Notes: generated by a model from the letters alone, not told the origin. A stretch of 64,000 nt of DNA from an uncultured Actinomycetota bacterium (GCA_963823915.1 CAWGNJ010000002.1:79192-143191); one strand, 5' to 3'; positions 5,785-62,468 are shown, counted from the stretch's first letter. Numbers and translations: made by a program.

Positions 5785-5801
5785 TTCTCACCTGATTCTG
5801 C
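5785..5801 (+). promoter_or_regulatory. TTCTCA-N5-TTCTGC direct repeat (weak copy of the GATTCTCAT box)
   Basis: 11-bp phasing. Proximal end lies 73 nt before ATG 5875. Confidence 0.35.
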
Positions 5802-5874
5802 GATGCCCTTCATGGGCGGCTTAGGTCGCTGAACGACAGTTGCTCCAGTAACGGAAATCGAAAGGAGCACTCAC

Positions 5875-6498
5875 ATGCGCAAAGCCATCGCAGCCATTGC
5901 GACTGCGGCGATCGTTCTCGGCGGATTCTCCGTCGCCCTGGTCGTCCAGTCGCCGGACGTGGCCTCCGCTCAGGAGGTCGAGACGGAGGACACCCGCACA
6001 ACCGTTCCAGAAAGCGTCGAAGACATCCTGGCCGATCTGGTCGAGGACGGCGTGATCACCGAGGGGCAATCCACCCAGATCTCCGAAGCCCTGCGGCAAC
6101 GAGTCGGGCCTCTTCGGGAACACCGCGGCGGGTTCGCTCGTGGAGCCCAACTGGAGACGATCGCAGGGGTGATCGACATCGAGGTTGAAGACCTCGCCGC
6201 AGCTCTTCGAGACGGACAGACGATTGCCGAGGTAGCCGAGGCCAACGGATCTTCGGCCCAGGCCGTGATCGACACCCTCGTCGCAGAGATGAACACCAAT
6301 CTCGATCAAGCGATTGAGGACGGAAAGCTGACCACCGAGAAAGCTGACGAGATCAGGACCGACGCACCTGAGCGGATCCGGTCGATGGTCAACGGAGAGT
6401 TCGAAGGCCGCAAGGGTTTCGACGGACATCGGCGCATGGGCCCCGGACCGGGACTCAGTTTCGATGACGCACCTAACGCCGCGGAGACCAGCGCCTAG
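5875..6498 (+). CDS. secreted helical-repeat protein with (I/L)(T/S)xxQ motifs (paralog 1)
   Basis: Signal peptide ending ASA-QE, AGGAG 7 nt before the ATG, and motifs VITEGQSTQI and KLTTEKADEI. Clear paralog of 7235-8287 (shared AQAVIDTLVAE / TQAVIDALVAE, ..MVNGE). Confidence 0.7.
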   Translation: MRKAIAAIATAAIVLGGFSVALVVQSPDVASAQEVETEDTRTTVPESVEDILADLVEDGVITEGQSTQISEALRQRVGPLREHRGGFARGAQLETIAGVIDIEVEDLAAALRDGQTIAEVAEANGSSAQAVIDTLVAEMNTNLDQAIEDGKLTTEKADEIRTDAPERIRSMVNGEFEGRKGFDGHRRMGPGPGLSFDDAPNAAETSA

Positions 6499-7152: not shown

Positions 7153-7172
7153 GATTCTCATGTTGTTTTCAT
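7153..7172 (+). promoter_or_regulatory. GATTCTCAT-gttg-TTTTCAT box upstream of secreted paralog 2
   Basis: 17 of 20 bases identical to 14162-14181. Proximal end lies 62 nt before ATG 7235. Confidence 0.55.
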
Positions 7173-7234
7173 CCTCTTCTTAGGTGGCCGCCATATCGTA
7201 TTTGTGAAGGTCAGATTCTCTGGAGGTAAGACCC

Positions 7235-8287
7235 ATGCGCAAAGCGATGACCGCCCTGGCAGTTGTTGCCCTGGTGGCCGGAGTGGCCCTGGTAGCCGTC
7301 TCCTTGAGCCAGTCACCGTCCGCGCTTGCTCAGGAAACTGAACGAGAAGTCTTCTTCGAGCCGCTCGACGACGTACTCAACGATCTGGTCGACGACCAGG
7401 TGATAACCGAAGACCAGCGCGAGAAGATCGCTACTGCCTTTGAGGAACGGATCGTCCGATTCGGTAAGGAACATCGCGAAACGCCCCACCTGGAAACCGT
7501 TGCCGACACGCTCGACATGGCTGTTGACGAACTCGTTCAGCAGATGCGAGACGGGGCAACCATTGCCGACATCGCCGGAGACCAGACCCAGGCAGTGATC
7601 GACGCCCTGGTGGCGGAGCAGACCACCCGCCTCGAAGAAGCGGTCTCCCAAGAGCGCATTAGCGAGGAGCAGGCCGACGAGATCCGGTCCGCCATGGTCA
7701 AAAAGGTCGAAGCGATGGTCAACGGTGAGCAGTGGATGACGACCCATCCCTTCGACATCGACCGATTCCACGGTCCACGGGGCCATGGCTTCTTTGGTGG
7801 ACCACGCGGTTTCGATTTCTTCGACAAGATGCCCAAGTTCGGCCGGTTTGGGTTCGGAGGCGGCTTCGGTCTCGATCCGATCGCTGAGGCGCTCGGGTTG
7901 GAAACTGATGAACTCATCGACCGCCTTTCCGACGGATCATCACTGGCCGACATCGCTGAGGAACTGGGTGTCGAAATCGAGGAGATCGTCAATGCAGCGC
8001 TGGCCGACCTCGACGAGAAGCTGCAAGACCTGATCGCCGACGAACGGTTGACCCAAGAACATGCCGACGGAATCCGCGCCGGTCTGGCGGAAGCCATCGA
8101 ATCGATGATCAACGGCGAGATGCCGGGTTTCGACGGATTTCACTTCGAGTTCAAATTCGACGGTGAAGCCCCCCACTTCGGGGATTTCCCGTTCCACAAG
8201 TTCTTTGGGGACCCCGATGGGGATTTCCCGTTCCACAAGTTCTTTGGGGACCCCGATGATGTCGACGGGACCGGCACCGCGGCCTAA
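7235..8287 (+). CDS. secreted helical-repeat protein with (I/L)(T/S)xxQ motifs (paralog 2, duplicated module, F/G-rich linker)
   Basis: Signal peptide ending ALA-QE, GGAGG before the ATG. Two copies of the module (VITEDQREKI, RISEEQADEI, RLTQEHADGI). Linker FHGPRGHGFFGGPRGFDFF..FGRFGFGGGFG. C-terminal GDFPFHKFFGDPD x2. Confidence 0.75.
   Translation: MRKAMTALAVVALVAGVALVAVSLSQSPSALAQETEREVFFEPLDDVLNDLVDDQVITEDQREKIATAFEERIVRFGKEHRETPHLETVADTLDMAVDELVQQMRDGATIADIAGDQTQAVIDALVAEQTTRLEEAVSQERISEEQADEIRSAMVKKVEAMVNGEQWMTTHPFDIDRFHGPRGHGFFGGPRGFDFFDKMPKFGRFGFGGGFGLDPIAEALGLETDELIDRLSDGSSLADIAEELGVEIEEIVNAALADLDEKLQDLIADERLTQEHADGIRAGLAEAIESMINGEMPGFDGFHFEFKFDGEAPHFGDFPFHKFFGDPDGDFPFHKFFGDPDDVDGTGTAA
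8180..8257 (+). repeat. perfect 39-bp tandem duplication inside CDS 7235-8287
   Basis: ggggatttcccgttccacaagttctttggggaccccgat x2, encoding GDFPFHKFFGDPD x2. Confidence 0.95.
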
Positions 8288-8481: not shown

Positions 8482-8949
8482 ATGCAGTATTGGCTGATGA
8501 AATCTGAACCCGGCGACTATTCGATCGATGACTTGCAGCGAGACGGCACCGAGCACTGGGACGGCATTCGCAACTACCAGGCCCGCAACCTGATGCGGGA
8601 TCAAATGGAGATCGGTGATCGTGTGCTGTTCTATCACTCCAACGCCAAGCCGCCCGGCGTGATCGGAATCGCGGAGATCGCCAGTGGTCCTTACCCGGAC
8701 TACTCACAATTCGATCCCAGCGAGAAGTACCACGACCCCAAATCGGACCCGGACAATCCCCGGTGGATCATGGTGGATGTGAAGTTCGTGGAGAAGCTGC
8801 CCAGGTTGGTCTCGCTCCCTGAACTACGGGAATACCAGGAACTGGCTGACATGGTGCTGCTCAATCGGTCCCGATTGTCGGTTCAGCCGGTGACAAAAGG
8901 CCAGTTCGAGTTCATCGTGGATCGGGCGCAGGAACCAGCTCCGGAGTAG
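8482..8949 (+). CDS. EVE domain protein
   Basis: MQYWLMKSEPGDYSIDDL..HWDGIRNYQARNLMRD..GDRVLFYHSN is characteristic of the EVE/PUA-like fold. Confidence 0.85.
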   Translation: MQYWLMKSEPGDYSIDDLQRDGTEHWDGIRNYQARNLMRDQMEIGDRVLFYHSNAKPPGVIGIAEIASGPYPDYSQFDPSEKYHDPKSDPDNPRWIMVDVKFVEKLPRLVSLPELREYQELADMVLLNRSRLSVQPVTKGQFEFIVDRAQEPAPE

Positions 8950-8955
8950 CTGCGG

Positions 8956-9192
8956 TCAGGCGCCGCCACCGAACAGCTGGGACTTGAGTTCTTTGCAGGT
9001 TGGACAGACCGGGTAGCGATCCGGGTCCCGGTTGGGAACCCACTTCTTGCCGCATAGCGCCACGACCGGCACGCCTTCGACATTGCTGAGGACGATGTCC
9101 GACTTTCGCACGTAGTGAGCGAACCGATCATGGCTCCCGTCACCCTCCGCCAGGCGAGGTTCGTGCTTCGTTTCCGGGGCAGTACCACTCAT
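8956..9192 (-). CDS. DUF3039 domain protein
   Basis: DRFAHYVRKSDIVLSNVEGVPVVALCGKKWVPNRDPDRYPVCPTCKEL matches the conserved actinobacterial DUF3039 pattern. Start set at ATG 9192. Confidence 0.75.
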   Translation of the reverse strand: MSGTAPETKHEPRLAEGDGSHDRFAHYVRKSDIVLSNVEGVPVVALCGKKWVPNRDPDRYPVCPTCKELKSQLFGGGA

Positions 9193-9218
9193 GTCCCCAT
9201 TCTCGCAGGAGAACCCCG

Positions 9219-9267
9219 GTTTTGGCGTCGCAGGACCACGCCACGCGTGTTTCCACGACGCCAAAAC
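9219..9267. repeat. nested-hairpin repeat, copy 1 (GTTTTGGCGTCG-25 nt-CGACGCCAAAAC)
   Basis: 12-bp outer stem. Inner stem CACGC/GCGTG (9237-9249). In a divergent intergenic region. Confidence 0.85.
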
Positions 9268-9323
9268 GGAGCGTAGTGTTGGATTTGAAGGGCAACAGCG
9301 TGGATCGACTCACTGTGCTCGCC

Positions 9324-9779
9324 ATGTTCAGCTGGCAGTACCTGCTGATGGCGTTCTTCGCCTGCTTGGGAATCGTGCAGTTGGCAGCGGCCCGGTCGGG
9401 AAGACGTCACCTCTGGTTGCTGGGCAATCGCCGGTGGACGGCCTTGGCAGGCGTCGTCCTGCTCATCGCCGGTGTGGTGCTCTTCTACCTGATGCCGCTC
9501 TTCGTGACCGGACCGTGGGGACCGCCCGACCCGATCGATGGCACGGCCACCCGAGCCCGGGCATCCCTCGACACGCTTCCCGAAGCCCGCAACCTCAACG
9601 ACACCGACGGTGGCCTATCGGGTCATTGGCAAGCCTTGTGGTTTGCGATCGCTTGGATATCGGCAGTGTTCTTTGCCAGGGCCGTGGGTCGTTGGCGGCC
9701 TCCACTCCAAGCGCAAGAGACAGCGGATAGTCAAGACGAGCGAGTCCTGATCGGTGTGACGTCGGGAGACCGCCGATGA
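9324..9779 (+). CDS. hypothetical membrane protein
   Basis: In-frame ATG 9324 inside ORF 9222-9779. Four predicted TM helices. Stop overlaps the next start (ATGA). Confidence 0.5.
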   Translation: MFSWQYLLMAFFACLGIVQLAAARSGRRHLWLLGNRRWTALAGVVLLIAGVVLFYLMPLFVTGPWGPPDPIDGTATRARASLDTLPEARNLNDTDGGLSGHWQALWFAIAWISAVFFARAVGRWRPPLQAQETADSQDERVLIGVTSGDRR

Positions 9780-10360
9780 TCTTCCTAGACGACACGGTGT
9801 TCCGTTGGCTCAACGAACTGGCCGGCCGGTCGGAGGTCATCGACGGGTTCGTCCGCTTCGCCATCGGCGACTATTTGATCCCGTTCGTCGCCACCCTGGC
9901 CATCGCCTGGTTGTGGTTTGCCGGGCGAGGAGATCGGGAGACCGGTCTTTTTCAGCATGCCGCGCTCCACGCATTGGTGGCCCTCGGCATCTGTCAGCTG
10001 GTGGTGGCCCTTATCAACATCGCCGTCGGGCGTCCCCGTCCTTTTGAGCAGCTTCCCGATGTGATCGTGTTGTTCTACGAGCCCATCAACTCGTCTTTTC
10101 CTGCCCACCCGGTGGCCACCGTCGTGGCACTGGGCCTGGTGCTCTGGACGGTCAAACCCCGGGCGGGAGGGTTGATCCTCCTGCTCGGGCTCCTGCTTGG
10201 GGTCGGGCGAATCATCGCCGGATTGTGGTTCCCCACCGACGTCCTCGGAGGCATCGCGGTCGGCGGTTTGTCGGCGCTGACGGGAGCGTGGACGCTCGGC
10301 CCGCTCCGCCGCGCCGAAGAGTTCATCCGAGCGAAAACCGCGCAGCTGGGGGTGGGCTAG
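9776..10360 (+). CDS. PAP2-family phosphatase-like membrane protein (divergent motifs)
   Basis: GRPRPF, SFPAHP and GRIIAGLWFPTDVLGG sit at PAP2 motif positions. The usual His of the third motif is absent. Confidence 0.65.
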   Translation: MIFLDDTVFRWLNELAGRSEVIDGFVRFAIGDYLIPFVATLAIAWLWFAGRGDRETGLFQHAALHALVALGICQLVVALINIAVGRPRPFEQLPDVIVLFYEPINSSFPAHPVATVVALGLVLWTVKPRAGGLILLLGLLLGVGRIIAGLWFPTDVLGGIAVGGLSALTGAWTLGPLRRAEEFIRAKTAQLGVG

Positions 10361-10455: not shown

Positions 10456-11919
10456 CTACCCCTCGCCCAGCACAACGTCGACCGTCTCCACTGCGCCATC
10501 CCGATCGACGCTCAACTGCACGGTGTTGCCCACATGCGAACGACGCAGGAGGACGATCAGGTCCTGCATGATCTCGACCTCTTCGCCCTCGAAAGAGACG
10601 ATGAGATCACCGGCCAGCAGACCGGCTGCAGCCGCGCCGCCCACCGGATCGACTGATCCGATTTCAACCCCGGCAGGAACCTGGGCGCCATCGGCGGCCG
10701 TGTCGAAGCTCGTTCCGCCGGTGATCCCCAGGAATGCAGTTCCGGCCCGACCGTTCGCAATCAACTCCTCAACAACTCGTTCGACGATCTCGACGGGCGT
10801 GGCAAAACCGATCCCTTCTACGCCTATCTCCGATACCCCGACGGCGGTCGTGATCCCGATCAATCGACCCGTCTCGTCGACCAGCGCTCCTCCACTAGAT
10901 CCTTGAGTAATCGGAGCGTCAGTCTGCAACATTCCATAGAGGGGGTCGCTGCCGCCGGTTTGCACCAACCGGTCGAAGGCGGAAAGCACGCCCACGGTTA
11001 GCGACGGGCCTCCGTCAAGTCCAAGCGGGTTCCCAACCGCCACCGCGGGGTCTCCCACGGACAGGTCGTCGGACGATCCCAATTCGATCGGGACTAGGTT
11101 GTCGGCATCGATCTTGAGGACCGCTAGATCAGTAACCGGATCGGTACCTACCAGGGAGGCTTCGTAGACCCGCCCATCGGCGAACACCACCCGGTAGGCC
11201 GGACTGCCGGAAGCGACATGATCGTTGGTGATGATGTGGCCTTCCGTGTCAAACACGACACCTGATCCGGATCCACGCCGGCTGAAGCCGGTGGGGCCTT
11301 CCTGTCCGACCTGCACGCTGACGGTGGAAGGGATCACGACTTCGCCCACCAGAACGGCATCGACATTGGCTTCGCGCAGTTGAAGCGTTGCTGATCCGGT
11401 CGACGGAGGGGTAGCGGTCTCAGCGACCTGGTCGACCACTGTCGTGGTGGTAGTGGTAACCGGATCTTCGGAGAAGTCGAGGGCACCGACCCCGGCCACT
11501 GCGGCCAGCGCCACCACGGCCCCCAAGAATCCAGACACCATGGGGATCAAAACCCGGCCCCGCGGCCGGTCGGCCGGTTTTGAAGTGTCGAGGGATCCTG
11601 TCACTCCCCCCACAATGGGGGCGGGGGGCGAAACGGGTCCGGCCGGCCACTCCACCGTCGGCGGAAGGGCCTGCCGTCCAGGAAGATCGAAGCGGGCTGG
11701 GTCAAGGCGATCCCGAGGGGGCGAATCGCTCCATGCGGGACGCATCGGCTCAAAGCGTCCGGAATCGGGTTCTTCGACCGTCGACTCATTGTCCCGGACG
11801 TTCGTATCCCGTCCGGCGGCATCGTGGTCGGCGTCGGGAGGCGTGGTCGCCTCTCCGTGAATGAGCGATGACGGCTGGTCATCGTCAGACCGTGGATCCT
11901 GGTTGGGGTACATATTCAT
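10456..11919 (-). CDS. HtrA/PepD-like S1C serine protease with PDZ domain
   Basis: HIITNDHV, DLAVLKI and TQGSSGGALVDE catalytic text followed by a PDZ domain. Pro-rich N-terminus plus one TM. Start set at ATG 11919 (MNMYPNQ, GGAG upstream). Confidence 0.85.
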   Translation of the reverse strand: MNMYPNQDPRSDDDQPSSLIHGEATTPPDADHDAAGRDTNVRDNESTVEEPDSGRFEPMRPAWSDSPPRDRLDPARFDLPGRQALPPTVEWPAGPVSPPAPIVGGVTGSLDTSKPADRPRGRVLIPMVSGFLGAVVALAAVAGVGALDFSEDPVTTTTTTVVDQVAETATPPSTGSATLQLREANVDAVLVGEVVIPSTVSVQVGQEGPTGFSRRGSGSGVVFDTEGHIITNDHVASGSPAYRVVFADGRVYEASLVGTDPVTDLAVLKIDADNLVPIELGSSDDLSVGDPAVAVGNPLGLDGGPSLTVGVLSAFDRLVQTGGSDPLYGMLQTDAPITQGSSGGALVDETGRLIGITTAVGVSEIGVEGIGFATPVEIVERVVEELIANGRAGTAFLGITGGTSFDTAADGAQVPAGVEIGSVDPVGGAAAAGLLAGDLIVSFEGEEVEIMQDLIVLLRRSHVGNTVQLSVDRDGAVETVDVVLGEG

Positions 11920-12013
11920 CTCCGTCTGCAACGTCTTCTCGTAGAAATTATTCGAATCCGATGTGAGTACCGGATGAACCGAAGCTAAGAAGCTGGTGAG
12001 AACTCTCTGTCGA

Positions 12014-13363
12014 TCACACCGTGGCGGGGATCTGGAATCCCACCCGGGCGCCACCGCCGGGTGTCTCGTCGGCCCATACCCGACCGCCGTGGAGGTCGAT
12101 CACCTGTTTGACGATCGCCAGGCCGAGGCCCGATCCAGGCATCGACCGGGCCGTCGCGGAACGGTAGAAACGATCGAACACGTATGAACGATCTTCCAGG
12201 CCAATGCCGGGGCCGTGATCGATCACTTCCACTGATCCACCCCGAACCGAAACCTCGATGGGGACATCGGGTGGACTCCACTTATGGGCGTTGTCGACCA
12301 GGTTGATTACCGCCCGCTCGAGCATCCCCGGCCGGCCTTCCACGGTTCCCCCGTCCCCTGTCACCACTACGGTCCGGCCCGTTCGCCGGCGGGCCCGCTC
12401 GGCCACCTGTTCGACAAGTTCGGCCAGATCGACTTGGGACACTGGCTCCTCGGCGATCCGGGCGTCGGTGGCCAGTTCAACCAGTTCCGACACCAACTCG
12501 GTCAGCTCCTCCAGTTCAAAGGTCACGTCGGCCAGCAGTTCCTGTTTCTCGGCACCTTCCATGTCGTCCGACTTGGCCAGTACCTCGATGTTCGTACGAA
12601 GCGAGGTGAGCGGGGTGCGCAACTCATGGCTGGCGTCGGCTACAAGTTGCTGCTGCTGTTGGCGGGAAGCACCCAGCGCTTTCAGCATGGTGTTGAAGCT
12701 GGAAGCCAGCCGCCCGATCTCATCGTTCCGATCGACGGCGATGGGAGCATCGAAATCCTGGGTAGTGGCCACATGTTCGGCAGTGGCGGTCAACTCACCG
12801 ACCGGCTTCAGCGCCCGGCCGGCGACCAACCAACCCATGAGGGCGGCGAGGAGAACACCCAAGCCGCCAATGCCAAACAGACGCAATCGGAGTCCATTGA
12901 CGATGGCATCGGTTTCGCTCATGTCGCGAGCGATCTGGATCGCGTAGCCGTCTCCCCAGGGAGCGGTGATCATCCGGTAGTGGGTCTCCTCCACGTACAC
13001 ATTGCGCGGTTCGACGTAGAGGCGCTCACCGACGACCTGTAGGTCGGTTTCCGAGATCGGCAGTGCCGGGCCGCCGCGCAAGAACGCGACCACCTCTCCC
13101 TCTTCGTTGAATGCCTGGAAGGCTGAGTCCGGTCCGAAGACGTCAAAGATCCCGAATCCACCCATCCCGAACTCACGCGAGGCAGGGAAGCGGCCTCCGC
13201 CCTCGGCGAGTGCTGTGAGAGCGGAAGCTCGCTGAACCAGGAACTGATCGATTTCGCCTCTTGCTTCGCGAGTGGCCGAGACGTAAGCCGCCCCGGCCAC
13301 CGCCGCTACCGCCATGGCCACCGCCAGGGCTACAAAAAGAGAGAGCCGGGCGCGCAGGGTCAC
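12014..13363 (-). CDS. sensor histidine kinase (MprB-like)
   Basis: Two TM helices, HAMP, H-box [35 protein letters not shown]. 4-nt overlap with the regulator upstream. Confidence 0.9.
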
Positions 13364-14052
13364 GATTCTCTCAGCGCGTAACCGACGCCGCGCACCGTAT
13401 GGATCAGGCGAGGTTCGTCCTCGGCCTCGGTCTTGCGGCGCAGGTATCCGATATAGACGTCCAGCGAATTTGAAGAGGTTCCGAAATCGTATCCCCAGAT
13501 TCGCTCGTAGATGACTTCCCGGGTGAGCACGATGCCGGAATTGAGCAACAGCAATTCGAGCAGATCGAACTCTGTTTTGGTCAGCTCTATCAATCGACCG
13601 GCGCGTTCCACCCGGCGAGTCTCCGGGTCGAGGGTGAGATCGGCAAACGTCATGGGACCGCCCAGATCTTCGGGAGCCGTTCGCCGCAAGAGAGCACGGA
13701 GGCGGGCCAGCAGCTCTTCGAGAGCAAACGGTTTGACGAGATAGTCGTCGGCTCCGGCGTCCAATCCGGCGACTCGATCGGAGATGTCGTGCTTGGCGGT
13801 GAGCATCAGGATCGGTAGGTCATCCCCCTTGGCGCGGATCCGCCTGCACACCGACAACCCGTCAACGTAGGGCATCATGATGTCCAGAATCAGGGCGTCG
13901 GGCCGGTCGTCCTTGATGGCCTCCAGTGCTTCTGCACCGTCCACGGCCAAGCTGATCTCGTAGCCCTCGAAACGGAGAGCCCGTTGCAACGACTGTCGCA
14001 CACTCCGATCATCCTCGGCGATCAGCACCCTGGCGCCGTTCGTTTCTGTCAT
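13360..14052 (-). CDS. OmpR/PhoB-family response regulator (MprA-like)
   Basis: REC domain ([18 protein letters not shown]) plus winged helix ([20 protein letters not shown]). Confidence 0.9.
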
Positions 14053-14109
14053 GGGGAATCCCTTGAGGTTTCTTTGCCGAAACTGTACAACGGCCTACCT
14101 ATGAGCACA

Positions 14110-14138
14110 CTGAGAGCTAGATGAGAATCGGGTGAGAA
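14110..14138 (-). promoter_or_regulatory. three phased hexamers TTCTCA-ccc-GATTCTCAT-ctag-CTCTCAG upstream of the MprA-like regulator
   Basis: On the plus strand, TGAGAG, TGAGAA and TGAGAA start at 14111, 14122 and 14133 (11-bp spacing). The array ends 57 nt before the start codon at 14052. Confidence 0.55.
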
Positions 14139-14161
14139 GCGCAACTATTCCTGGGCCGTGC

Positions 14162-14181
14162 GATTCTCATATGTTTTTCAT
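14162..14181 (+). promoter_or_regulatory. GATTCTCAT-atgt-TTTTCAT box upstream of the lipoprotein/HlyD-like/MacB-like operon
   Basis: Proximal end lies 65 nt before ATG 14247. Forms a 10-bp inverted repeat with 14121-14130. Confidence 0.55.
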
Positions 14182-14246
14182 GTGACTATCAGAATCCCCT
14201 TAGCGCCGGATACGAGAGTGAAAGAGTTCTCGAAAGGAATCCCTGA

Positions 14247-14870
14247 ATGAAACGAAGGCTCATCCTCCTGCTGACAGTCCTGGCCCTGGTGGCCGCGGCC
14301 TGCTCGAGCAACGACACCGGCGGTGAAGTCGCCACGCTCGAAGGATCTGTTACCACTCTGGCGGAGGTGGTGGACAACCCAACCGACGATGAGGTGGACA
14401 CCGAACAGGCGATGCTCAATTTCACTCAGTGCCTCCGTGACGAGGGCCTAGAAATCCCTGACCCGGAAATGGATGCGGATGGGAATCTCAACTTCCGCCA
14501 GCTCGCTGATGGAGCGGAAGATGTCGACCGCGAAGCCCTCCGAGCTGGATTTGAGGCTTGCCAATCTGAGCTGGAAGGCATCACTCTGCGGGGCGGAGGT
14601 ATTGACCGGACGGCGATCCAGGACACCCTCATCGAGTATGCCGCCTGCATGCGAGACAACGGCTACGACATGGAAGATCCCGACCTTTCGGACTTCGGAC
14701 CCGGGGCCGGCGATGGTGAAGGTCAACCCGGCGGGGGTGGCGGGCCATTCGGCGACATCGACCCTGAGGATCCGGCGTTCGTAGCCGCCAACGAGGTTTG
14801 CCAGGGGATCTTCGTCAGTGCGGTCCCCCGCTTCCTCGGCGGTGAAGGCCAAGGCTCGGGAGGCGAATGA
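14247..14870 (+). CDS. lipoprotein, function unknown
   Basis: Lipobox LVAAAC-S, acidic mature part with paired Cys. 4-nt overlap with the next gene. Confidence 0.65.
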   Translation: MKRRLILLLTVLALVAAACSSNDTGGEVATLEGSVTTLAEVVDNPTDDEVDTEQAMLNFTQCLRDEGLEIPDPEMDADGNLNFRQLADGAEDVDREALRAGFEACQSELEGITLRGGGIDRTAIQDTLIEYAACMRDNGYDMEDPDLSDFGPGAGDGEGQPGGGGGPFGDIDPEDPAFVAANEVCQGIFVSAVPRFLGGEGQGSGGE

Positions 14871-16453
14871 TGAGAACTGTTCCGAGCGAGGAGGACGCCC
14901 CGGTCCCGGCGGAGGACCGGGAGTCAGAGGAGGCAGTTTCGGTGGATGAACCGAAGAAACGAAGCAGCCGCGGATGGATAGTTGCGGTGATCGTTGCGGC
15001 TGCCCTGGCTGCGGCTGTGTGGTTCATAACCCAGAACGGGACAAACGAGACCGACTCTGCAGCCGCTATCCCGCTCAGTTTCTCTGAAGTGGTCATCCGC
15101 GATCTCGAGGAGATTGAGGAGTTGTCCGGCACGCTTGGTTTCGATGCCGGAGATCCGATTTCGTCACGGTTCGCGGGCACGCTGACTTCGTCGGTTGAGG
15201 CCGGCGATGTTGTCCACGAAGGCGACGCTCTCTTCGCGATCGACAATCAGCCGATTGTGCTTCTCTACGGAAGTGACCCGATTTATCGGAACCTGGCCAT
15301 CGGCGAGGACCAGGTCCAGGTCATGGGACGCTTGGCGGGGCCCATCACCGAGATCGTCGAACCGGGCACGATCATCGAACAAGGCGATGTGCTGTACCGG
15401 GCCGACGGTGAGCCGGTCGCGGTGTTGTACGGCGACACCCTCGCCTACCGCACCCTGCGGGACGCATCCACCAACCTGACCGGTGCCGACGTCGAGCAAC
15501 TCGAAACGGCATTGGTGGCCCTCGGCTACGACCCGAACGAAACCCTCACCGTGGATGATGAGTTCACCTACGCAACCGGGCAGGTGGTCGAGGATTGGCA
15601 ACGTGACATCGGCGCCAACGACGACGGCGTCCTCAATTTGGGCGAAGTCGTGTTCATCCCCGGACCGGCCCTTGTAGTCGACGCCGCCCAATCCGGCGAT
15701 ACGGCCGGTCCCAACGCCCCCGTCTTGATCCTCCTGACCGGCGATCCGATGACCGGCACCGATGTCTCACAACTCGAGAATTCTCTGTCGACGCAAGGAT
15801 TCGACCCCGGAACGGTTGACGGAGTATTCACCGTGGAGACTCAGGAAGCCTTGATCGATTGGCAACAGTCGGTCGGCATGGAACCCGACGGCGTGGTCGA
15901 CGTTGGGGAGGTGATCTTCCTTCCCGATTCGATACGCATCGCGGCCGCCAATGTGACTGTTGGCTCCTCAGTGAATCCTGGTGCTGCGGTACTGGCAACA
16001 TCCTCGAACCAGAGCATCGTCGCCGTAGCCCTCGCCGCCCGCGACCAGGGTCTCCTGGCCGAAGGCGATCAGGTCACCGTGGTGCTTCCGAACGATGTGG
16101 AAACACCTGCCACGGTCACCTTTGTGGCGGCCCTGGCAACCGTTTCCGGCGCCGGTCAAGAACAGCAGGCGACTTTCGAAGTCCTCATTGAGCTCGATGA
16201 TGACTCCGAAGCCGCCGGATTCGACGAAGCCCCCGTTGATGTCCTGGTCATCACCGATCAACGCCTGGGCGCATTGGCGGTGCCGGTTAGCTCCTTGCTG
16301 GCACTCGCCGAGGGCGGGTACGCGGTAGAAGTGGACCGGGGCAACGGGCAAACGGCCCTGGTGGCGGTGGACCCGGGCATGTACGCCGACGGGTATGTAG
16401 AGATCGAGGCGGAAGGCCTCCAGCCGGGCGACCGGGTGGTGATGGCCCGATGA
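14867..16453 (+). CDS. membrane-anchored HlyD-like adaptor with two peptidoglycan-binding (PG_binding_1-like) repeats
   Basis: One N-terminal TM. Repeats LTGADVEQLETALVALGYDP..WQRDIGANDDGVLNLGEVVF and MTGTDVSQLENSLSTQGFDPG..WQQSVGMEPDGVVDVGEVIF. Followed by a MacB-type ABC pair. Confidence 0.7.
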   Translation: MMRTVPSEEDAPVPAEDRESEEAVSVDEPKKRSSRGWIVAVIVAAALAAAVWFITQNGTNETDSAAAIPLSFSEVVIRDLEEIEELSGTLGFDAGDPISSRFAGTLTSSVEAGDVVHEGDALFAIDNQPIVLLYGSDPIYRNLAIGEDQVQVMGRLAGPITEIVEPGTIIEQGDVLYRADGEPVAVLYGDTLAYRTLRDASTNLTGADVEQLETALVALGYDPNETLTVDDEFTYATGQVVEDWQRDIGANDDGVLNLGEVVFIPGPALVVDAAQSGDTAGPNAPVLILLTGDPMTGTDVSQLENSLSTQGFDPGTVDGVFTVETQEALIDWQQSVGMEPDGVVDVGEVIFLPDSIRIAAANVTVGSSVNPGAAVLATSSNQSIVAVALAARDQGLLAEGDQVTVVLPNDVETPATVTFVAALATVSGAGQEQQATFEVLIELDDDSEAAGFDEAPVDVLVITDQRLGALAVPVSSLLALAEGGYAVEVDRGNGQTALVAVDPGMYADGYVEIEAEGLQPGDRVVMAR

Positions 16454-17200
16454 ACCTTCGCCGACGCAACGGCGGGCGCGGTCCCGGCGGAGAGCGTCTG
16501 ATGATCGACCCGGGCGTCGTGTTGTCACTCCGGGGGGTCACCAAGACCTATCCGGGCACCCCGCCGGTGCGGGCGCTGCGAGGTGTAGATCTGAAAATCC
16601 GACTGGGAGAGCTGGCCGGCATCGTCGGGCCGTCCGGGTCCGGAAAGTCGACCTTGCTCCACATCATGGGCACTCTTGATCTGCCCACGCGCGGAGAGGT
16701 TCACCTGGCCGGGCATCAGGTCTCCGCCTTGAACGACAAAGAACTGTCAGCGCTCGGTCGCGCCACATCGGTTTTGTCTTCCAGCAGTTCCATCTCCTCA
16801 ACAGCCAGTCGGCCTTGGACAACGTGGCGGACGGCCTGCTCTACACCGGTACGCCGATCGCAGAGCGCCGGGAGCTCGCCGGCGCTGCCCTGCAACGGGT
16901 CGGGTCTGGGCCATCGGCTCGATCACTCGCCAACAAATTGTCCGGCGGCGAACGGCAGCGGGTGGCGGTCGCCCGGGCCATCGTCGGCCGGCCGGCGATG
17001 GTGCTGGCAGACGAACCAACCGGCAATCTCGACAGCAAGTCCTCGGACGGCATCGTCGAGCTGATCGAAGAACTCAACGCCGAAGGCATAACCATGCTGG
17101 TCATCACCCACAACCAGGAGATTGCCGAGCGATTCCCCCGGCAAGTTGGCGCTTCTCGACGGGACGATCGAATACGATCGCGCATCGGCGGCGGCTGTGA
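16450..17200 (+). CDS. ABC transporter ATP-binding protein (MacB/LolD type), frame-interrupted
   Basis: [12 protein letters not shown] in 16450-17064 and LSGGERQRVAVARA..LADEPTGNLD in 16815-17465. Breaks near 16760 and 17150. 3' end approximate. Confidence 0.8.
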
Positions 17201-17201
17201 C

Positions 17202-18399
17202 ATGCCGCACCGAGCTGATCCCAGCAAACTCCACGCCGGCGACATCCTCCGCACCTCCGCTGTAGGACTGCGCACCAGAAAGATGCGGGCGGCCCTCTCG
17301 GCGCTTGGCATCATGATCGGCATCGCCTCAATGGTCGCCGTGCTCGGACTCTCCGAATCATCAAAGTCCGACCTGCTCGCCCAACTCGACCGGCTGGGCA
17401 CCAATCTGCTCACCGTCCAGGCCGGGGACCGGGATCGGTCGCGGCAACGGCGAATTGCCGGCTGAGGCGGCGGCGATGGTCGAACGTATCGGACCGGTCG
17501 ACGAGGTCTCGTCGGCAAGCGATATCGACGCCAACGTGTACCGCACCGACTACATCCCCTCCGGCCAATCCGGCGGCATCACCGTCAAGGCGGTGGACAT
17601 CGAACCTGTTGACACGCTGCAGGGAACCGTGGCCGACGGGCGTTTTCTCGACGAAGCCAGCGGCGCATACCCGACGGTGGTGCTCGGAGCGGTGGCTGCA
17701 GAACGGTTGGGCATCACCGACCTCGACGGCAACCCGCTCGTCTGGCTCGGCGACCAGTGGTTCGGCGTCATCGGCATTCTCGAACAGTTCGACCTGAGCG
17801 CCGATCTCGACCGGGCCGCGCTGGTCGGCTGGAGGCCGCTGCAGACGTACTTCGAGTCGAGAACATGCCCGACGTCATCTACGTTCGAACGGATCCCGAG
17901 CAAGTCGACAATGTGATGGGCGTGTTGGCCGCCACCGACCAATCCGGAGAACCCGGAGGAGGTCGAGGTGGCTCGACCGTCCGACGCTCTCGAAGCTCGG
18001 GATGCCGCCGAGATGCCTTCACCGCGCTGTTCCTCGGGCTGGGGGCGGTCGCGCTCTGGTCGGCGGGGTCGGCATCGCCAACGTGATGGTGATCTCGGTG
18101 CTGGAACGCCGGGCCGAGATCGGCCTGCGCCGCGCGCTCGGTGCGACCAAGCGCCACATGCCATCCAGTTCCTCGGGGAAGCGTTGTTGCTGGCCGTCAT
18201 CGGTGGCGTCGGCGGCGTGATCCTCGGATCGGCAGTAACCGCCGGGTACGCCTCCATCCGTGGTTGGGGGATTCTCATCCCGGAGATTGCCCTGATCGGT
18301 GGATTCGCAGCTGCAATCTTGATCGGCGCCATCGCCGGCCTCTACCCGGCCCTTCGAGCAGCTCGCCTCTCCCCCACCGAGGCCTTGAGAACCACCTAA
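17202..18399 (+). CDS. FtsX/MacB-type ABC permease, frame-interrupted
   Basis: N-terminus LRTRKMRAALSALGIMIGIASMV, periplasmic core in 17455-17916, FtsX C-terminus in 17968-18399 (GLYPALRAARLSPTEALR). At least 3 breaks. Confidence 0.75.
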
Positions 18400-60040: not shown

Positions 60041-61771
60041 TCATTCCCCCGACCAAACCCCATCGTCGCCATCGATGAGCGGAAGCGATAGGCGGAACGT
60101 CGATCCGACCCCTAGTTGACTCTCTACCTCCACACGTCCGCCGTGCCGCTCCGCCACATGCTTGACGATGGCCAGACCCAGGCCGGTTCCTCCCGTGTGC
60201 CGAGAACGCGCCACATCAACCCGGTAGAACCGTTCGAATACCCGCGGCAGATCGCGGGTGGGTATCCCCACGCCGTTGTCGGCCACCTCGAGCACGGCTG
60301 CGTTACCAACGGGCCGGACCGCAATTCGCACCTCACCACCGGCCGCGTATCTCTGAGCGTTGTCGAGCAGATTCCGAACCGCCAGGCCCAAGTCAGATCG
60401 ACTTCCGTAGACGGCAACCGGCTCGGTTTGCACAATCAGCTCTACCGGAGCCTTTCCACTCGCATGCTCGAGTCGCGCTGCCTCGTCTCTCACCGTCTCG
60501 TCGAAACGCACTCTCTCGAATACCGGATCCTCGGTCTCGAGGCGCGAAAGGTCGAGAAGGTCGCCGACCACCCTTCCCAAACGGACCGTATTGAGGCGGA
60601 CCTGCTCGGCAAAGGTCCTGGCAGCCTCCGGATCCTCGTCGACGGCCCGCAGGATGGTTTCCGCGCCGGCCTGAATCGCTGAGATAGGTGTCTTCAACTC
60701 GTGTGAGGCATCGGCCACGAAGTCCCGCCGCATGGCCTCCACTCGAAGCGCCTCCGTGACGTCCTGCAAGACCAACAAGACGCTGCCCGGCTCATGGGGA
60801 ACCACCGCAGAGGCCAAGAGCCGGCGGGAAGGGACGCCGTATTCAAAATCTCCGTGCACCATCCCGGCCCCGGAACGAGCTCGACCGGACAATTCCTGAA
60901 GTGGACCGGGTAGTTCGGCCAACAGTGGGCGAACACCGATTGCGTTACGGGCCCAGGGATTGGCGTAGGCAACCGAATCGTCGGCTTCGATCAAGATCAC
61001 CCCTTCTTCGAGCGAATCCAGGATCCGGTCGCGCAGCAAGCGCTCGTCCTCACTCTGCTGCGCTTTGTGGCGAAGCTCAACCGCCATCCGGTTCACGGTA
61101 TCGGCCATGCGCCGGAGTTCAACAGTCGAGGTGACGCCCACCTCCGCCGTACGATCGCCGGCAGCAATGGCCATCGCCGACTCTGTGATTTGCTGAATGG
61201 GACGCACGATCCGGCGGGCGATCAGCCAGATGGCCCCAACTCCCAGAAGGGCGGCGGCCAGACCGGCGAAGGCGATGGCAGTCCGTAAGCGTCGGAGACG
61301 TTCCGCAATGACGTTGACCGGCTCGGCCACGCGCACTACCCGGCCATCGTCGGTCGGAGGTATTGCGACGTAGCGGTACTCCACGCCAACGCTGGCACTG
61401 ACCCTGGTAGCGATCCCGGTGCCCCCGGCCAGCGCCGTCTGTACTTCCGGCCGTTGCGCGTGGTTCTCCATGCCCGCCTCATCACGAGACGAATCAAAAA
61501 GGACCCCTCCACCAATATCGATGACCGTGACCCGCAAGCTCTCGTTGTTGGCCCACTCCAGAATGCCCTGCGTCAATTCGCCTTCGCCTGCCACGACAGC
61601 CCGCAACAGAAGCGCCTGCGATTCGAGTGAGTCGGTCAGATCATCGAGCAACTGATTCTCGAGAACCCGATTGAGTACCACCCCAAGGATCAGCAGGACC
61701 ACCAGCACCGCGAGCGTGTACCAGATCAGGAGCTGGTTAGCCAGGGTTCGGCGGCGGAGTTCAGACATCAA
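60041..61771 (-). CDS. sensor histidine kinase (PhoR/SenX3-like)
   Basis: Two TM helices, HAMP, PAS-like region, H-box ADASHELKTPISAI, DNAQRY, DNGVGI, GTGLGLAIV. Confidence 0.9.
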   Translation of the reverse strand: MMSELRRRTLANQLLIWYTLAVLVVLLILGVVLNRVLENQLLDDLTDSLESQALLLRAVVAGEGELTQGILEWANNESLRVTVIDIGGGVLFDSSRDEAGMENHAQRPEVQTALAGGTGIATRVSASVGVEYRYVAIPPTDDGRVVRVAEPVNVIAERLRRLRTAIAFAGLAAALLGVGAIWLIARRIVRPIQQITESAMAIAAGDRTAEVGVTSTVELRRMADTVNRMAVELRHKAQQSEDERLLRDRILDSLEEGVILIEADDSVAYANPWARNAIGVRPLLAELPGPLQELSGRARSGAGMVHGDFEYGVPSRRLLASAVVPHEPGSVLLVLQDVTEALRVEAMRRDFVADASHELKTPISAIQAGAETILRAVDEDPEAARTFAEQVRLNTVRLGRVVGDLLDLSRLETEDPVFERVRFDETVRDEAARLEHASGKAPVELIVQTEPVAVYGSRSDLGLAVRNLLDNAQRYAAGGEVRIAVRPVGNAAVLEVADNGVGIPTRDLPRVFERFYRVDVARSRHTGGTGLGLAIVKHVAERHGGRVEVESQLGVGSTFRLSLPLIDGDDGVWSGE

Positions 61772-62468
61772 CGTACTTGTAGCCGAGACCCCGAACCGTC
61801 ACGAGATGAACGGGCCGGTGGGGGTCTTCCTCGATCTTGTTTCTGATTCGACGGATATGAACGTCCAGGGTCTTCATATCACCGTAGTAGCCGGGTCCCC
61901 ACACTTCTTCGATGAGGTATTCGCGGGTAAGGAGCCGGCCCATTCGGCGGAGAAAGGTTGAGACGAGATCGTACTCCTTGGGGCGGAAATCGACCGGTTC
62001 GCCGCGCACGGTAGCTTCGTGCCTCGCAACGTCAAGACGAACAGGGCCTCCCTCCAGGATTTCTTCGGCAAGTTCCCGGGTGGGGACGGCCATAGCCACC
62101 CGGCGAAGATTGGCCCTCACCCGGGCTATCAACTCTCTCATCGAAAACGGTTTGGTGACATAGTCGTCTGCCCCGATTTCGAGCCCCGCTACTTTGTCCG
62201 CCTCAGCATCTTTGGCAGTGACGATGATGATCGGAACGTTGGACTCGGATCGCAGCGCCCGGCACACATCGAGCCCGGCCATTTCCGGGAGCATCAGATC
62301 GAGCAAGATCAGATCGGGTGGCTCCAATCGGGCGCGTCGGAGGGCATCACGCCCGTCGTAAGCCACGTCGACGTCGTAGCCCTCTCGTTCGAGGTTGTAG
62401 CGGATCGAGTCGGCCAAACTTGCCTCATCCTCAACGATCAACACCCGGCGAGCGCGGTCAGTGGCCAT
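61761..62468 (-). CDS. OmpR/PhoB-family response regulator (PhoP/RegX3-like)
   Basis: REC domain plus winged helix (VRGLGYKY). Overlaps both neighbouring genes. Confidence 0.9.
   Translation of the reverse strand: MATDRARRVLIVEDEASLADSIRYNLEREGYDVDVAYDGRDALRRARLEPPDLILLDLMLPEMAGLDVCRALRSESNVPIIIVTAKDAEADKVAGLEIGADDYVTKPFSMRELIARVRANLRRVAMAVPTRELAEEILEGGPVRLDVARHEATVRGEPVDFRPKEYDLVSTFLRRMGRLLTREYLIEEVWGPGYYGDMKTLDVHIRRIRNKIEEDPHRPVHLVTVRGLGYKYVDV

Follow-up and report, generated by a model that had tools for sequence, protein, structure and literature searches.

Five promoters in the window, the whole 64-kb stretch of DNA that was analysed here, each carry an array of three or four TTCTCA-like hexamers that are repeated with an 11-bp phase. 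These arrays are most likely the sites at which the adjacent MprA-like response regulator acts as a PhoB-style class II activator, stimulating its own operon and a small, putative envelope-stress regulon. Judged by its gene order, domains, sequence similarity and box type, the system belongs to the MprAB-PepD type, and the mechanism is an ordinary one for regulators of the OmpR/PhoB family, without any new type of mechanism being involved.

The genes and arrays are listed in Table 1. An earlier note on this DNA had described a response regulator, a kinase and an HtrA-like protease, with a divergent operon for a lipoprotein, an HlyD-like and a MacB-like protein, and this gene content could be confirmed, with an OmpR-type regulator, a HAMP-HisKA kinase and an ABC transporter among the products. 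Its analogy with the mprA-mprB-pepD locus of Mycobacterium tuberculosis is also supported, as the order of OmpR-type regulator, HAMP kinase and HtrA-like protease is the same, and the regulator is 66% identical (residues 6–230) to the regulator of an mprA-mprB-pepD locus from a Mycobacterium (locus L028). The recognition helix and the wing are nearly identical in these two proteins. A comparison with NCBIfam placed the regulator below the cut-offs for MtrA, CseB, PhoB and CpxR, and returned no MprA model. For the kinase, the hydropathy profile indicates two transmembrane segments, at residues ~5–28 and ~160–182, between which lies an extracytoplasmic domain (~30–158, about 130 residues).

Table 1. 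Genes, hexamer arrays and 9-mer copies in the 64-kb window. For each array, the hexamers are followed by the distance to the predicted -10 element, that element and, where given, the start codon.
Feature	Position	Strand	Description
Box P	5785..5823	+	TTCTCA/TTCTGC/CCTTCA/GGCTTA; 11 nt; -10-like GACAGT 5835-5840; ATG 5875
Secreted paralog 1, 207 aa	5875..6498	+	signal peptide, all-helical domain, Gly/His-rich tail
Box S	7155..7182	+	TTCTCA/TTTTCA/TTCTTA (register of units 2-4); 11 nt; TATCGT 7194-7199; ATG 7235
Secreted paralog 2, 350 aa	7235..8287	+	tandem duplication of the paralog-1 domain
HtrA/PepD-like serine protease	10456..11919	-	Trypsin_2 and PDZ; 94 nt after kinase stop codon
Box H	11964..12002	-	TTCTCA/TTCTTA/GGTTCA/TACTCA; 11 nt; -10-like AATAAT 11952..11947; own htrA promoter
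Sensor histidine kinase	12014..13363	-	HAMP, HisKA, HATPase_c (Pfam)
MprA-like response regulator, OmpR/PhoB family, 230 aa	13360..14052	-	Response_reg E = 5.5e-33, Trans_reg_C E = 4.5e-27
Box R	14100..14138	-	TTCTCA/TTCTCA/CTCTCA/CTCATA; 12 nt; -10 TACAGT 14087..14082; ATG 14052
Box M	14164..14202	+	TTCTCA/TTTTCA/CTATCA/CCCTTA; 11 nt; -10-like GAGAGT 14214-14219; ATG 14247
Lipoprotein, 207 aa	14247..14870	+	lipobox AAAC; four further invariant Cys
HlyD-family membrane-fusion protein, 528 aa	14867..16453	+	two PG_binding_1 domains
MacB-type ABC ATPase and MacB_PCD/FtsX permease	16450..18399	+	ATPase about 16450-17199; permease about 17201-18399
Second OmpR-type regulator	61779-62468		part of a two-component system, about 60080-62468, 48 kb away
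Copies of GATTCTCAT	7153-7161 (+), 14121-14129 (-), 14162-14170 (+), 18270-18278 (+)

All five arrays lie in an intergenic gap and are oriented toward the downstream gene, and they share a common layout. The three or four hexamers resemble TTCTCA and keep an 11-bp phase. After a further 11–12 nt comes a -10-like nAnnnT, which in turn lies 27–35 nt from the ATG, and a Shine-Dalgarno-like GGAG or AGGA precedes this ATG at all five promoters. Box S has just three clear units. Boxes R and M stand back to back at a distance of 25 bp, and thus form separate arrays for the two divergent promoters. All of the -10 elements are predictions, and the one assigned to box M (GAGAGT) is weak.

The arrays contain a 9-mer, GATTCTCAT, which the earlier note had counted three times, each time in a promoter gap. 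These three sites (the first three copies in Table 1) were all found where it had placed them, the 17/20 identity of the 20-mers at positions 7153 and 14162 was reproduced, and the three hexamers on the regulator side (TTCTCA, TTCTCA and CTCTCA, at 14138..14111) do follow each other with an 11-bp phase. The pair TTCTCA-N5-TTCTGC was likewise located 73 nt 5' of the ATG of paralog 1 at 5875. The proposed OmpR/PhoB-type geometry is borne out too, with direct repeats of 11-bp period standing ahead of the gene for an OmpR/PhoB-family regulator. The copies in promoters are most likely the best-matching units of larger phased TTCTCA arrays. The total, however, is four, and the fourth copy falls within the coding sequence for the C-terminus of the FtsX permease (WGILI, from tgg ggg att ctc atc); scoring of phased TTCTCA hexamers over the whole window revealed no phased partners around it. 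Four copies compare with 0.58 expected in the 64-kb window, a number that was reached in 0 of 100 shuffles. Three features had been overlooked: the boxes on the plus strand likewise consist of three or four hexamers in phase, a fifth array is present upstream of htrA, beyond the stop codon of the kinase gene at 12014, and the frames of the ABC ATPase and permease genes are broken by frameshifts.

The whole 64 kb were scanned for the full layout, defined as four phased hexamers with at least 16 of 24 matches and an nAnnnT 11–12 nt downstream. This returned six hits, which correspond to the five promoters only (box S being found in two registers), against 0.13 expected from 300 dinucleotide shuffles; two phased hexamers with at least 11 of 12 matches were observed 5 times against 0.20 expected, and three with at least 15 of 18 matches 3 times against 0.017, in-window statistics that are only supportive and somewhat circular, since these very sites supplied the consensus. 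A search of the entire window against Rfam gave no match to a known RNA element.

A single promoter ahead of the regulator gene had been assumed to serve htrA as well. Box R does precede the regulator-kinase pair, but htrA has an additional box of its own, box H, which lies within the 94-nt gap that separates it from the kinase stop codon. The sequence indicates that htrA most likely starts at ATG 11919 or 11912 and not at GTG 12054, the start of the longest open reading frame, because the GTG start would place box H and its -10 inside the gene, and because GGAG-N7-ATG closes the alignments of the orthologous regions. Transcription of htrA could occur both by read-through from the regulator operon and from its own box H, as nothing resembling a terminator was detected in the gap behind the kinase gene. 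The gene moaB, which lies 3' of the protease gene in M. tuberculosis, is absent from this position and PAP2, DUF3039 and EVE genes are found there instead.

In the mechanism that we favour, the membrane kinase with its periplasm-like sensor domain would phosphorylate the regulator, and one or two head-to-tail regulator dimers would occupy each array and recruit RNA polymerase for class II activation of the PhoB type. Five units would come on together, namely the regulator-kinase operon, htrA, the two secreted paralogs and the lipoprotein/HlyD/MacB operon, and induction of the regulator-kinase operon would amount to positive autoregulation. We infer here the binding by the adjacent regulator, the activation as opposed to repression, the transcription starts and a signal that arises from envelope or secretion stress. 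In pho boxes, 11-bp direct repeats replace the -35 element and end about 10 bp before the -10, with at least one tandem dimer site per promoter. The window promoters, as measured here, resemble this arrangement. Their promoter-proximal hexamer ends 11–12 bp before the -10, so that an array would span roughly -62 to -24 with respect to the predicted start site and replace the -35, and a promoter scan of the region from 5.5 to 14.4 kb yielded no sigma-70-like -35/-10 pair. The combination that characterizes a PhoB-type class II promoter, 11-bp repeats near a predicted -10 without a -35, is seen at all five window promoters. The repeat of the E. coli pho box is CTGTCAT and its signal is phosphate, and the system described here therefore differs from E. 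coli PhoB in repeat sequence and signal, as well as in the regulator subfamily.

As both activation and repression are known for OmpR-family proteins, the regulator might instead repress by occluding the -35 region, or activate some promoters and repress others. The arrays do overlap the -35 position, and their occupancy could block RNA polymerase. We nevertheless regard this as quite unlikely. A recognisable -35 is missing from all five promoters, as is typical where transcription depends on an activator, and the distance of 11–12 bp between the proximal repeat and the -10 is the activation geometry of a pho box. Work on related bacteria also stands against repression: the mprA promoter of Corynebacterium glutamicum is subject to positive autoregulation (PMC12113857), and in M. 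tuberculosis pepD is under direct control of MprAB, which also upregulates mprA (PMC3062566, PMC3544749), MprA being reported to upregulate both mprA and pepD (PMC3544749). Activation by the MprA-like regulator was thus adopted on the basis of the array geometry, the absent -35 and the published work on MprA in relatives.

To follow the boxes beyond the window, the regulator protein was searched against one genome per species, which gave 80 loci, nearly all from Acidimicrobiia metagenome bins. Across many genomes the box accompanies the regulator gene and always lies upstream of it. The type of box also varies with the regulator itself. At least two copies of TCTCA are present within 150 nt upstream in 14 of the 19 loci in which the recognition helix begins with Asn; with Lys or Arg at this position, at least two upstream copies are found in 8 of 60 loci, and TCTTA dominates. 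The association over these 79 loci gives a Fisher p = 1.6e-6, a statistic that ignores shared ancestry, and the covariation is suggestive because it is not phylogeny-corrected and because three loci (L045, L061 and L065) are exceptions that combine Lys with TTCTCA boxes.

These observations bear on whether the boxes might be read by some other factor, be it an alternative sigma factor, the second OmpR-type regulator or a regulator encoded outside the window. The window makes 64 kb of the genome visible, and a second two-component system does lie within it. However, it is the MprA-like regulator gene that the box accompanies and precedes, and the recognition helix of that regulator with which the box type covaries. 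A series of four direct repeats spaced by 11 bp is, moreover, the signature of a winged-helix regulator and not of a sigma factor -35/-10 pair. The second regulator is 40% identical to the MprA-like protein, and window scans detected no TTCTCA-type box ahead of its gene. Recognition by another factor is therefore very unlikely, and we retain the adjacent MprA-like regulator as the protein that would bind the arrays.

The boxes pass an independent test, as they are conserved upstream of orthologous genes. When the regions upstream of the regulator gene were aligned for eight genomes (including L001–L003 with 89–93% regulator identity, and L004, L005, L007 and L018 with 71–74%), hexamers 1 and 2 were found to be fully invariant and hexamers 3 and 4 partly so, together with the -10 core, which most genomes have as GTACAGT; the spacers vary. 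A comparison of orthologous promoters had been proposed earlier as a check on the shared box, and it came out in its favour. Two loci that were found via homologues of paralog 1, L084 (ERZ25039508) and L086 (GCA_002403855.1), are syntenic gene for gene with the window between 5.8 and 16 kb. All five boxes are retained in both, with their order, orientation, phase and distance to the -10 unchanged. The unusual second hexamer of box P is retained in both, as TTCTGY. Subsets of the boxes are present in other Acidimicrobiia loci (L001–L007, L018, L052, L053, L056 and L063). Apart from its occurrence in L084 and L086, box S is conserved in L003, where it has the same DUF1801 neighbour, box H in L002, L003 and L063, and box M in L001 and L002.

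Genes of the same families are also boxed in more distant loci, in which the gene orders differ. The operons for lipoprotein, HlyD-PG, ABC and FtsX proteins carry the box in L053, L056 and L006, htrA carries it in L063, and genes of the paralog-1 family carry it in L018, L019 and L052, and twice in L063. We tabulated 27 boxes ahead of regulator, htrA, paralog-1-family and lipoprotein-operon genes, from the window and from loci down to 65% regulator identity, and in 22 of these an nAnnnT lies 11 or 12 nt past the fourth unit. It is scarcely credible that the boxes represent chance, or the leftover of a promoter duplication with no shared regulatory function: paralogs 1 and 2 are homologous, so that their promoters may share ancestry, and one of the four 9-mers falls by chance in a coding region, but three of the five boxed genes (those for the regulator, HtrA and the lipoprotein) are unrelated to one another and to the paralogs, the six full-layout hits contrast with the shuffled sequences, the hexamers are invariant where the spacers diverge, and the layout reappears before these gene families in distant loci whose genes are differently arranged.

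The two secreted paralogs belong to a large family. In blastp comparisons, paralog 1 matched the two repeats of paralog 2 with E = 2.5e-24 and 2.6e-15. A Pfam search with paralog 1 returned nothing above the cut-off and a weak match to DUF2680 only, and the family has 140 close homologues, mainly in Acidimicrobiia, some of which also show a weak DUF2680 match. A profile search with the helical domain identified 15,343 representatives in a library clustered at 50% identity. Many members contain two to seven copies in tandem, and some carry a trypsin-like protease at the N-terminus. The AF2 model of paralog 1 has a confident all-alpha core (residues 45–178, pLDDT of about 90), for which no match was obtained in the PDB, either by sequence with a profile search or by fold with Foldseek (best E = 2.5, unrelated proteins). 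The LTxxQ-like motifs ITEGQ and ISEEQ had prompted a possible identity with CpxP, Spy or ZraP, and no LTXXQ/CpxP Pfam match was present at E ≤ 10. An identity with CpxP or Spy is thus unsupported, since neither Pfam nor PDB sequences nor Foldseek provide a match.

In the envelope or secretion stress systems CpxAR-DegP-CpxP of E. coli and CssRS-HtrA/HtrB of B. subtilis, autoregulated two-component systems drive a protease of the HtrA family as well as small proteins that are secreted or periplasmic. They offer a functional analogy to the present system, from which they differ in the regulator and the box sequence, and the paralogs are not homologues of CpxP or Spy. The helical domain might represent a new class of extracytoplasmic stress protein that is co-induced with HtrA and serves as a chaperone or adaptor for the protease, or in feedback on the kinase sensor, which would amount to a CpxP/Spy-like function in an unrelated structure; together with the four-unit MprA-type array, it would then define an ancestral actinobacterial envelope-stress regulon. 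We consider this reading unlikely.

The operon behind box M begins with a lipoprotein whose family comprises 527 homologues with five invariant cysteines. No Pfam match was found for it, nor any fold match in the PDB with the AF2 model (pLDDT 69). Domain matches in the window include HlyD_3, Biotin_lipoyl_2 and ABC_tran and, on the basis of these sequence features, the ATPase, the MacB_PCD/FtsX permease and the PG-binding HlyD adaptor are assigned to a MacB-type exporter operon. In the window, the frames of the ATPase and permease genes are broken near 16755, 17420, 17832 and 18068. Both genes are intact (249 and 399 aa) in a JGI contig, L083, that is 98.4% identical over 8.4 kb and in which the permease matches MacB_PCD and FtsX, and they are also intact in L001. 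A 1.4-kb patch (16755–18159) holds 17 of the 18 indels and about 90 of the 116 mismatches between the window and the JGI contig, in contrast to 3 mismatches across 4.5 kb on the regulator/kinase side (12041–16500). A similar divergent patch is present at 1071–2603. The interpretation of the MacB genes as pseudogenes is weakened by the intact copies in the JGI contig and by the confinement of the differences to one patch, and neutral decay is unlikely because the contrast between the patch and the flanking 4.5 kb is too sharp. The frameshifted stretch is more likely to reflect a low-quality assembly or a recombined divergent allele. All of the boxes fall in clean parts of the window sequence. 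In L002, box M is followed by an apparent remnant of the permease C-terminus (tblastn E = 0.006, a weak match), for which reason this genome may have lost the operon behind the box.

Comparison with the known MprAB systems reveals both shared and distinct features. Direct TCTCA-core repeats of 11-bp period, placed before the regulator gene and separately before the protease gene, are a feature in common with the MprAB-PepD system, and at the Mycobacterium locus L028 TCTCTAAGGGGATTCTCAG stands ahead of pepD. The MprA box of M. tuberculosis reportedly consists of two 8-bp repeats, and the arrays of three to four units differ from it in this respect. Unlike in M. tuberculosis, no sigE, sigB or acr2 target lies within the 64-kb window, and the regulon includes a secreted helical family and the operon for a lipoprotein, a PG-binding adaptor and a MacB-type transporter. 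An Acidimicrobiia host is not expected to possess a mycolic-acid envelope, in contrast to M. tuberculosis. The promoters to which MprA~P binds in C. glutamicum are those of mprA, htrA, sigE and secreted proteins of unknown function, and its motif TKTTAAGAAM reads KTTCTTAAMA on the reverse strand and includes TTCTTA (PMC12113857), the hexamer variant that is used in boxes H and S. That motif is, however, a single loose 10-mer and not a phased array, and the targets there also comprise sigE, sigB, bla and csp.

For an MprA-type system in Acidimicrobiia, which lack experimental genetics and are known almost only from metagenomes, the arrays amount to a precise cis-regulatory code that can be tested, with four TTCTCA-like hexamers phased at 11 bp and ending 11–12 bp before the -10. 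They also place two large protein families, the secreted helical domain and the Cys-rich lipoprotein that heads a MacB operon, in a regulatory context in which co-induction with HtrA is predicted. The comparison suggests that the MprA recognition mode, with its TCTCA/TCTTA core, autoregulation and separate htrA promoter, is older than the split between Acidimicrobiia and Mycobacterium/Corynebacterium, and such an early origin would bear on the evolution of the persistence regulon of M. tuberculosis.

The core of the box, an array of TTCTCA-like hexamers phased at 11 bp upstream of the genes concerned, covaries with residue 1 of the recognition helix in the MprA-like regulator that is its putative reader. 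For loci L001–L080, all retrieved by the regulator search, we compared the region aligned to regulator residues 190–200 with the box core. Asn at this position is associated with TCTCA, whereas Lys or Arg mostly goes with TCTTA, with two or more upstream TCTCA copies at 14 of 19 loci in the Asn class vs 8 of 60 in the Lys/Arg class (Fisher p = 1.6e-6, uncorrected for phylogeny). Loci L045, L061 and L065 are exceptions.

Features discussed in this section (window coordinates unless a locus is named)
Feature	Coordinates	Strand
Indel-rich patch	1071-2603	
Paralog 1, secreted helical protein	5875-6498	+
Paralog 2, secreted helical protein	7235-8287	+
EVE-domain, DUF3039 and PAP2 genes	8482-10360	
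MprA-like regulator	13360-14052	-
Lipoprotein	14247-14870	
Indel-rich patch	16755-18159	
Fourth GATTCTCAT copy	18270-18278	
Second regulator/kinase pair	60080-62468	-
Box M and permease-like remnant in L002	5683-5891	-

The window encodes a second OmpR-type regulator (40% identical) with a histidine kinase whose catalytic part is 35% identical, and no TTCTCA array lies upstream of this pair. The earlier note had listed three GATTCTCAT sites and overlooked a fourth, which is located within the permease coding sequence, where it supplies the codons for GILI. No phased partner hexamers surround this copy, and it is a chance occurrence.

The lipoprotein is the first gene of the MacB-type operon headed by box M. 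Its family comprises 527 homologues, in which five cysteines are invariant, and has neither a Pfam model nor a PDB fold match; L006, L053 and L063 carry one to three tandem copies. Locus L003 has neither box M nor the lipoprotein/HlyD/ABC operon. In L002, box M is retained and is followed directly by a frameshifted remnant resembling the C-terminus of an FtsX permease, which suggests that the operon was deleted from this genome.

In two patches of the window, single-base indels and mismatches are dense compared with otherwise near-identical JGI contigs. The downstream patch holds 17 of 18 indels and ~90 of 116 mismatches relative to the JGI contig L083. The reading frames of the ABC ATPase and the FtsX permease, both intact in L083 and L001, are disrupted by this patch. 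The patches could reflect poor assembly quality or a degenerate allele brought in by recombination.

Between paralog 2 and htrA lie the EVE-domain, DUF3039 and PAP2 genes, all without a box, in an order shared with the syntenic loci L084 and L086. In M. tuberculosis, a moaB homologue is located downstream of the htrA-type gene; the window locus differs in having none there.

Paralogs 1 and 2 share a secreted helical domain that has no PDB fold match and is covered only partially by Pfam (DUF2680). Its family, considered here together with proteins P0241, P0247 and P0332, is very large (15,343 representatives at E <= 1e-3), with two to seven tandem copies common and, in some members, fusion to a trypsin-like protease.
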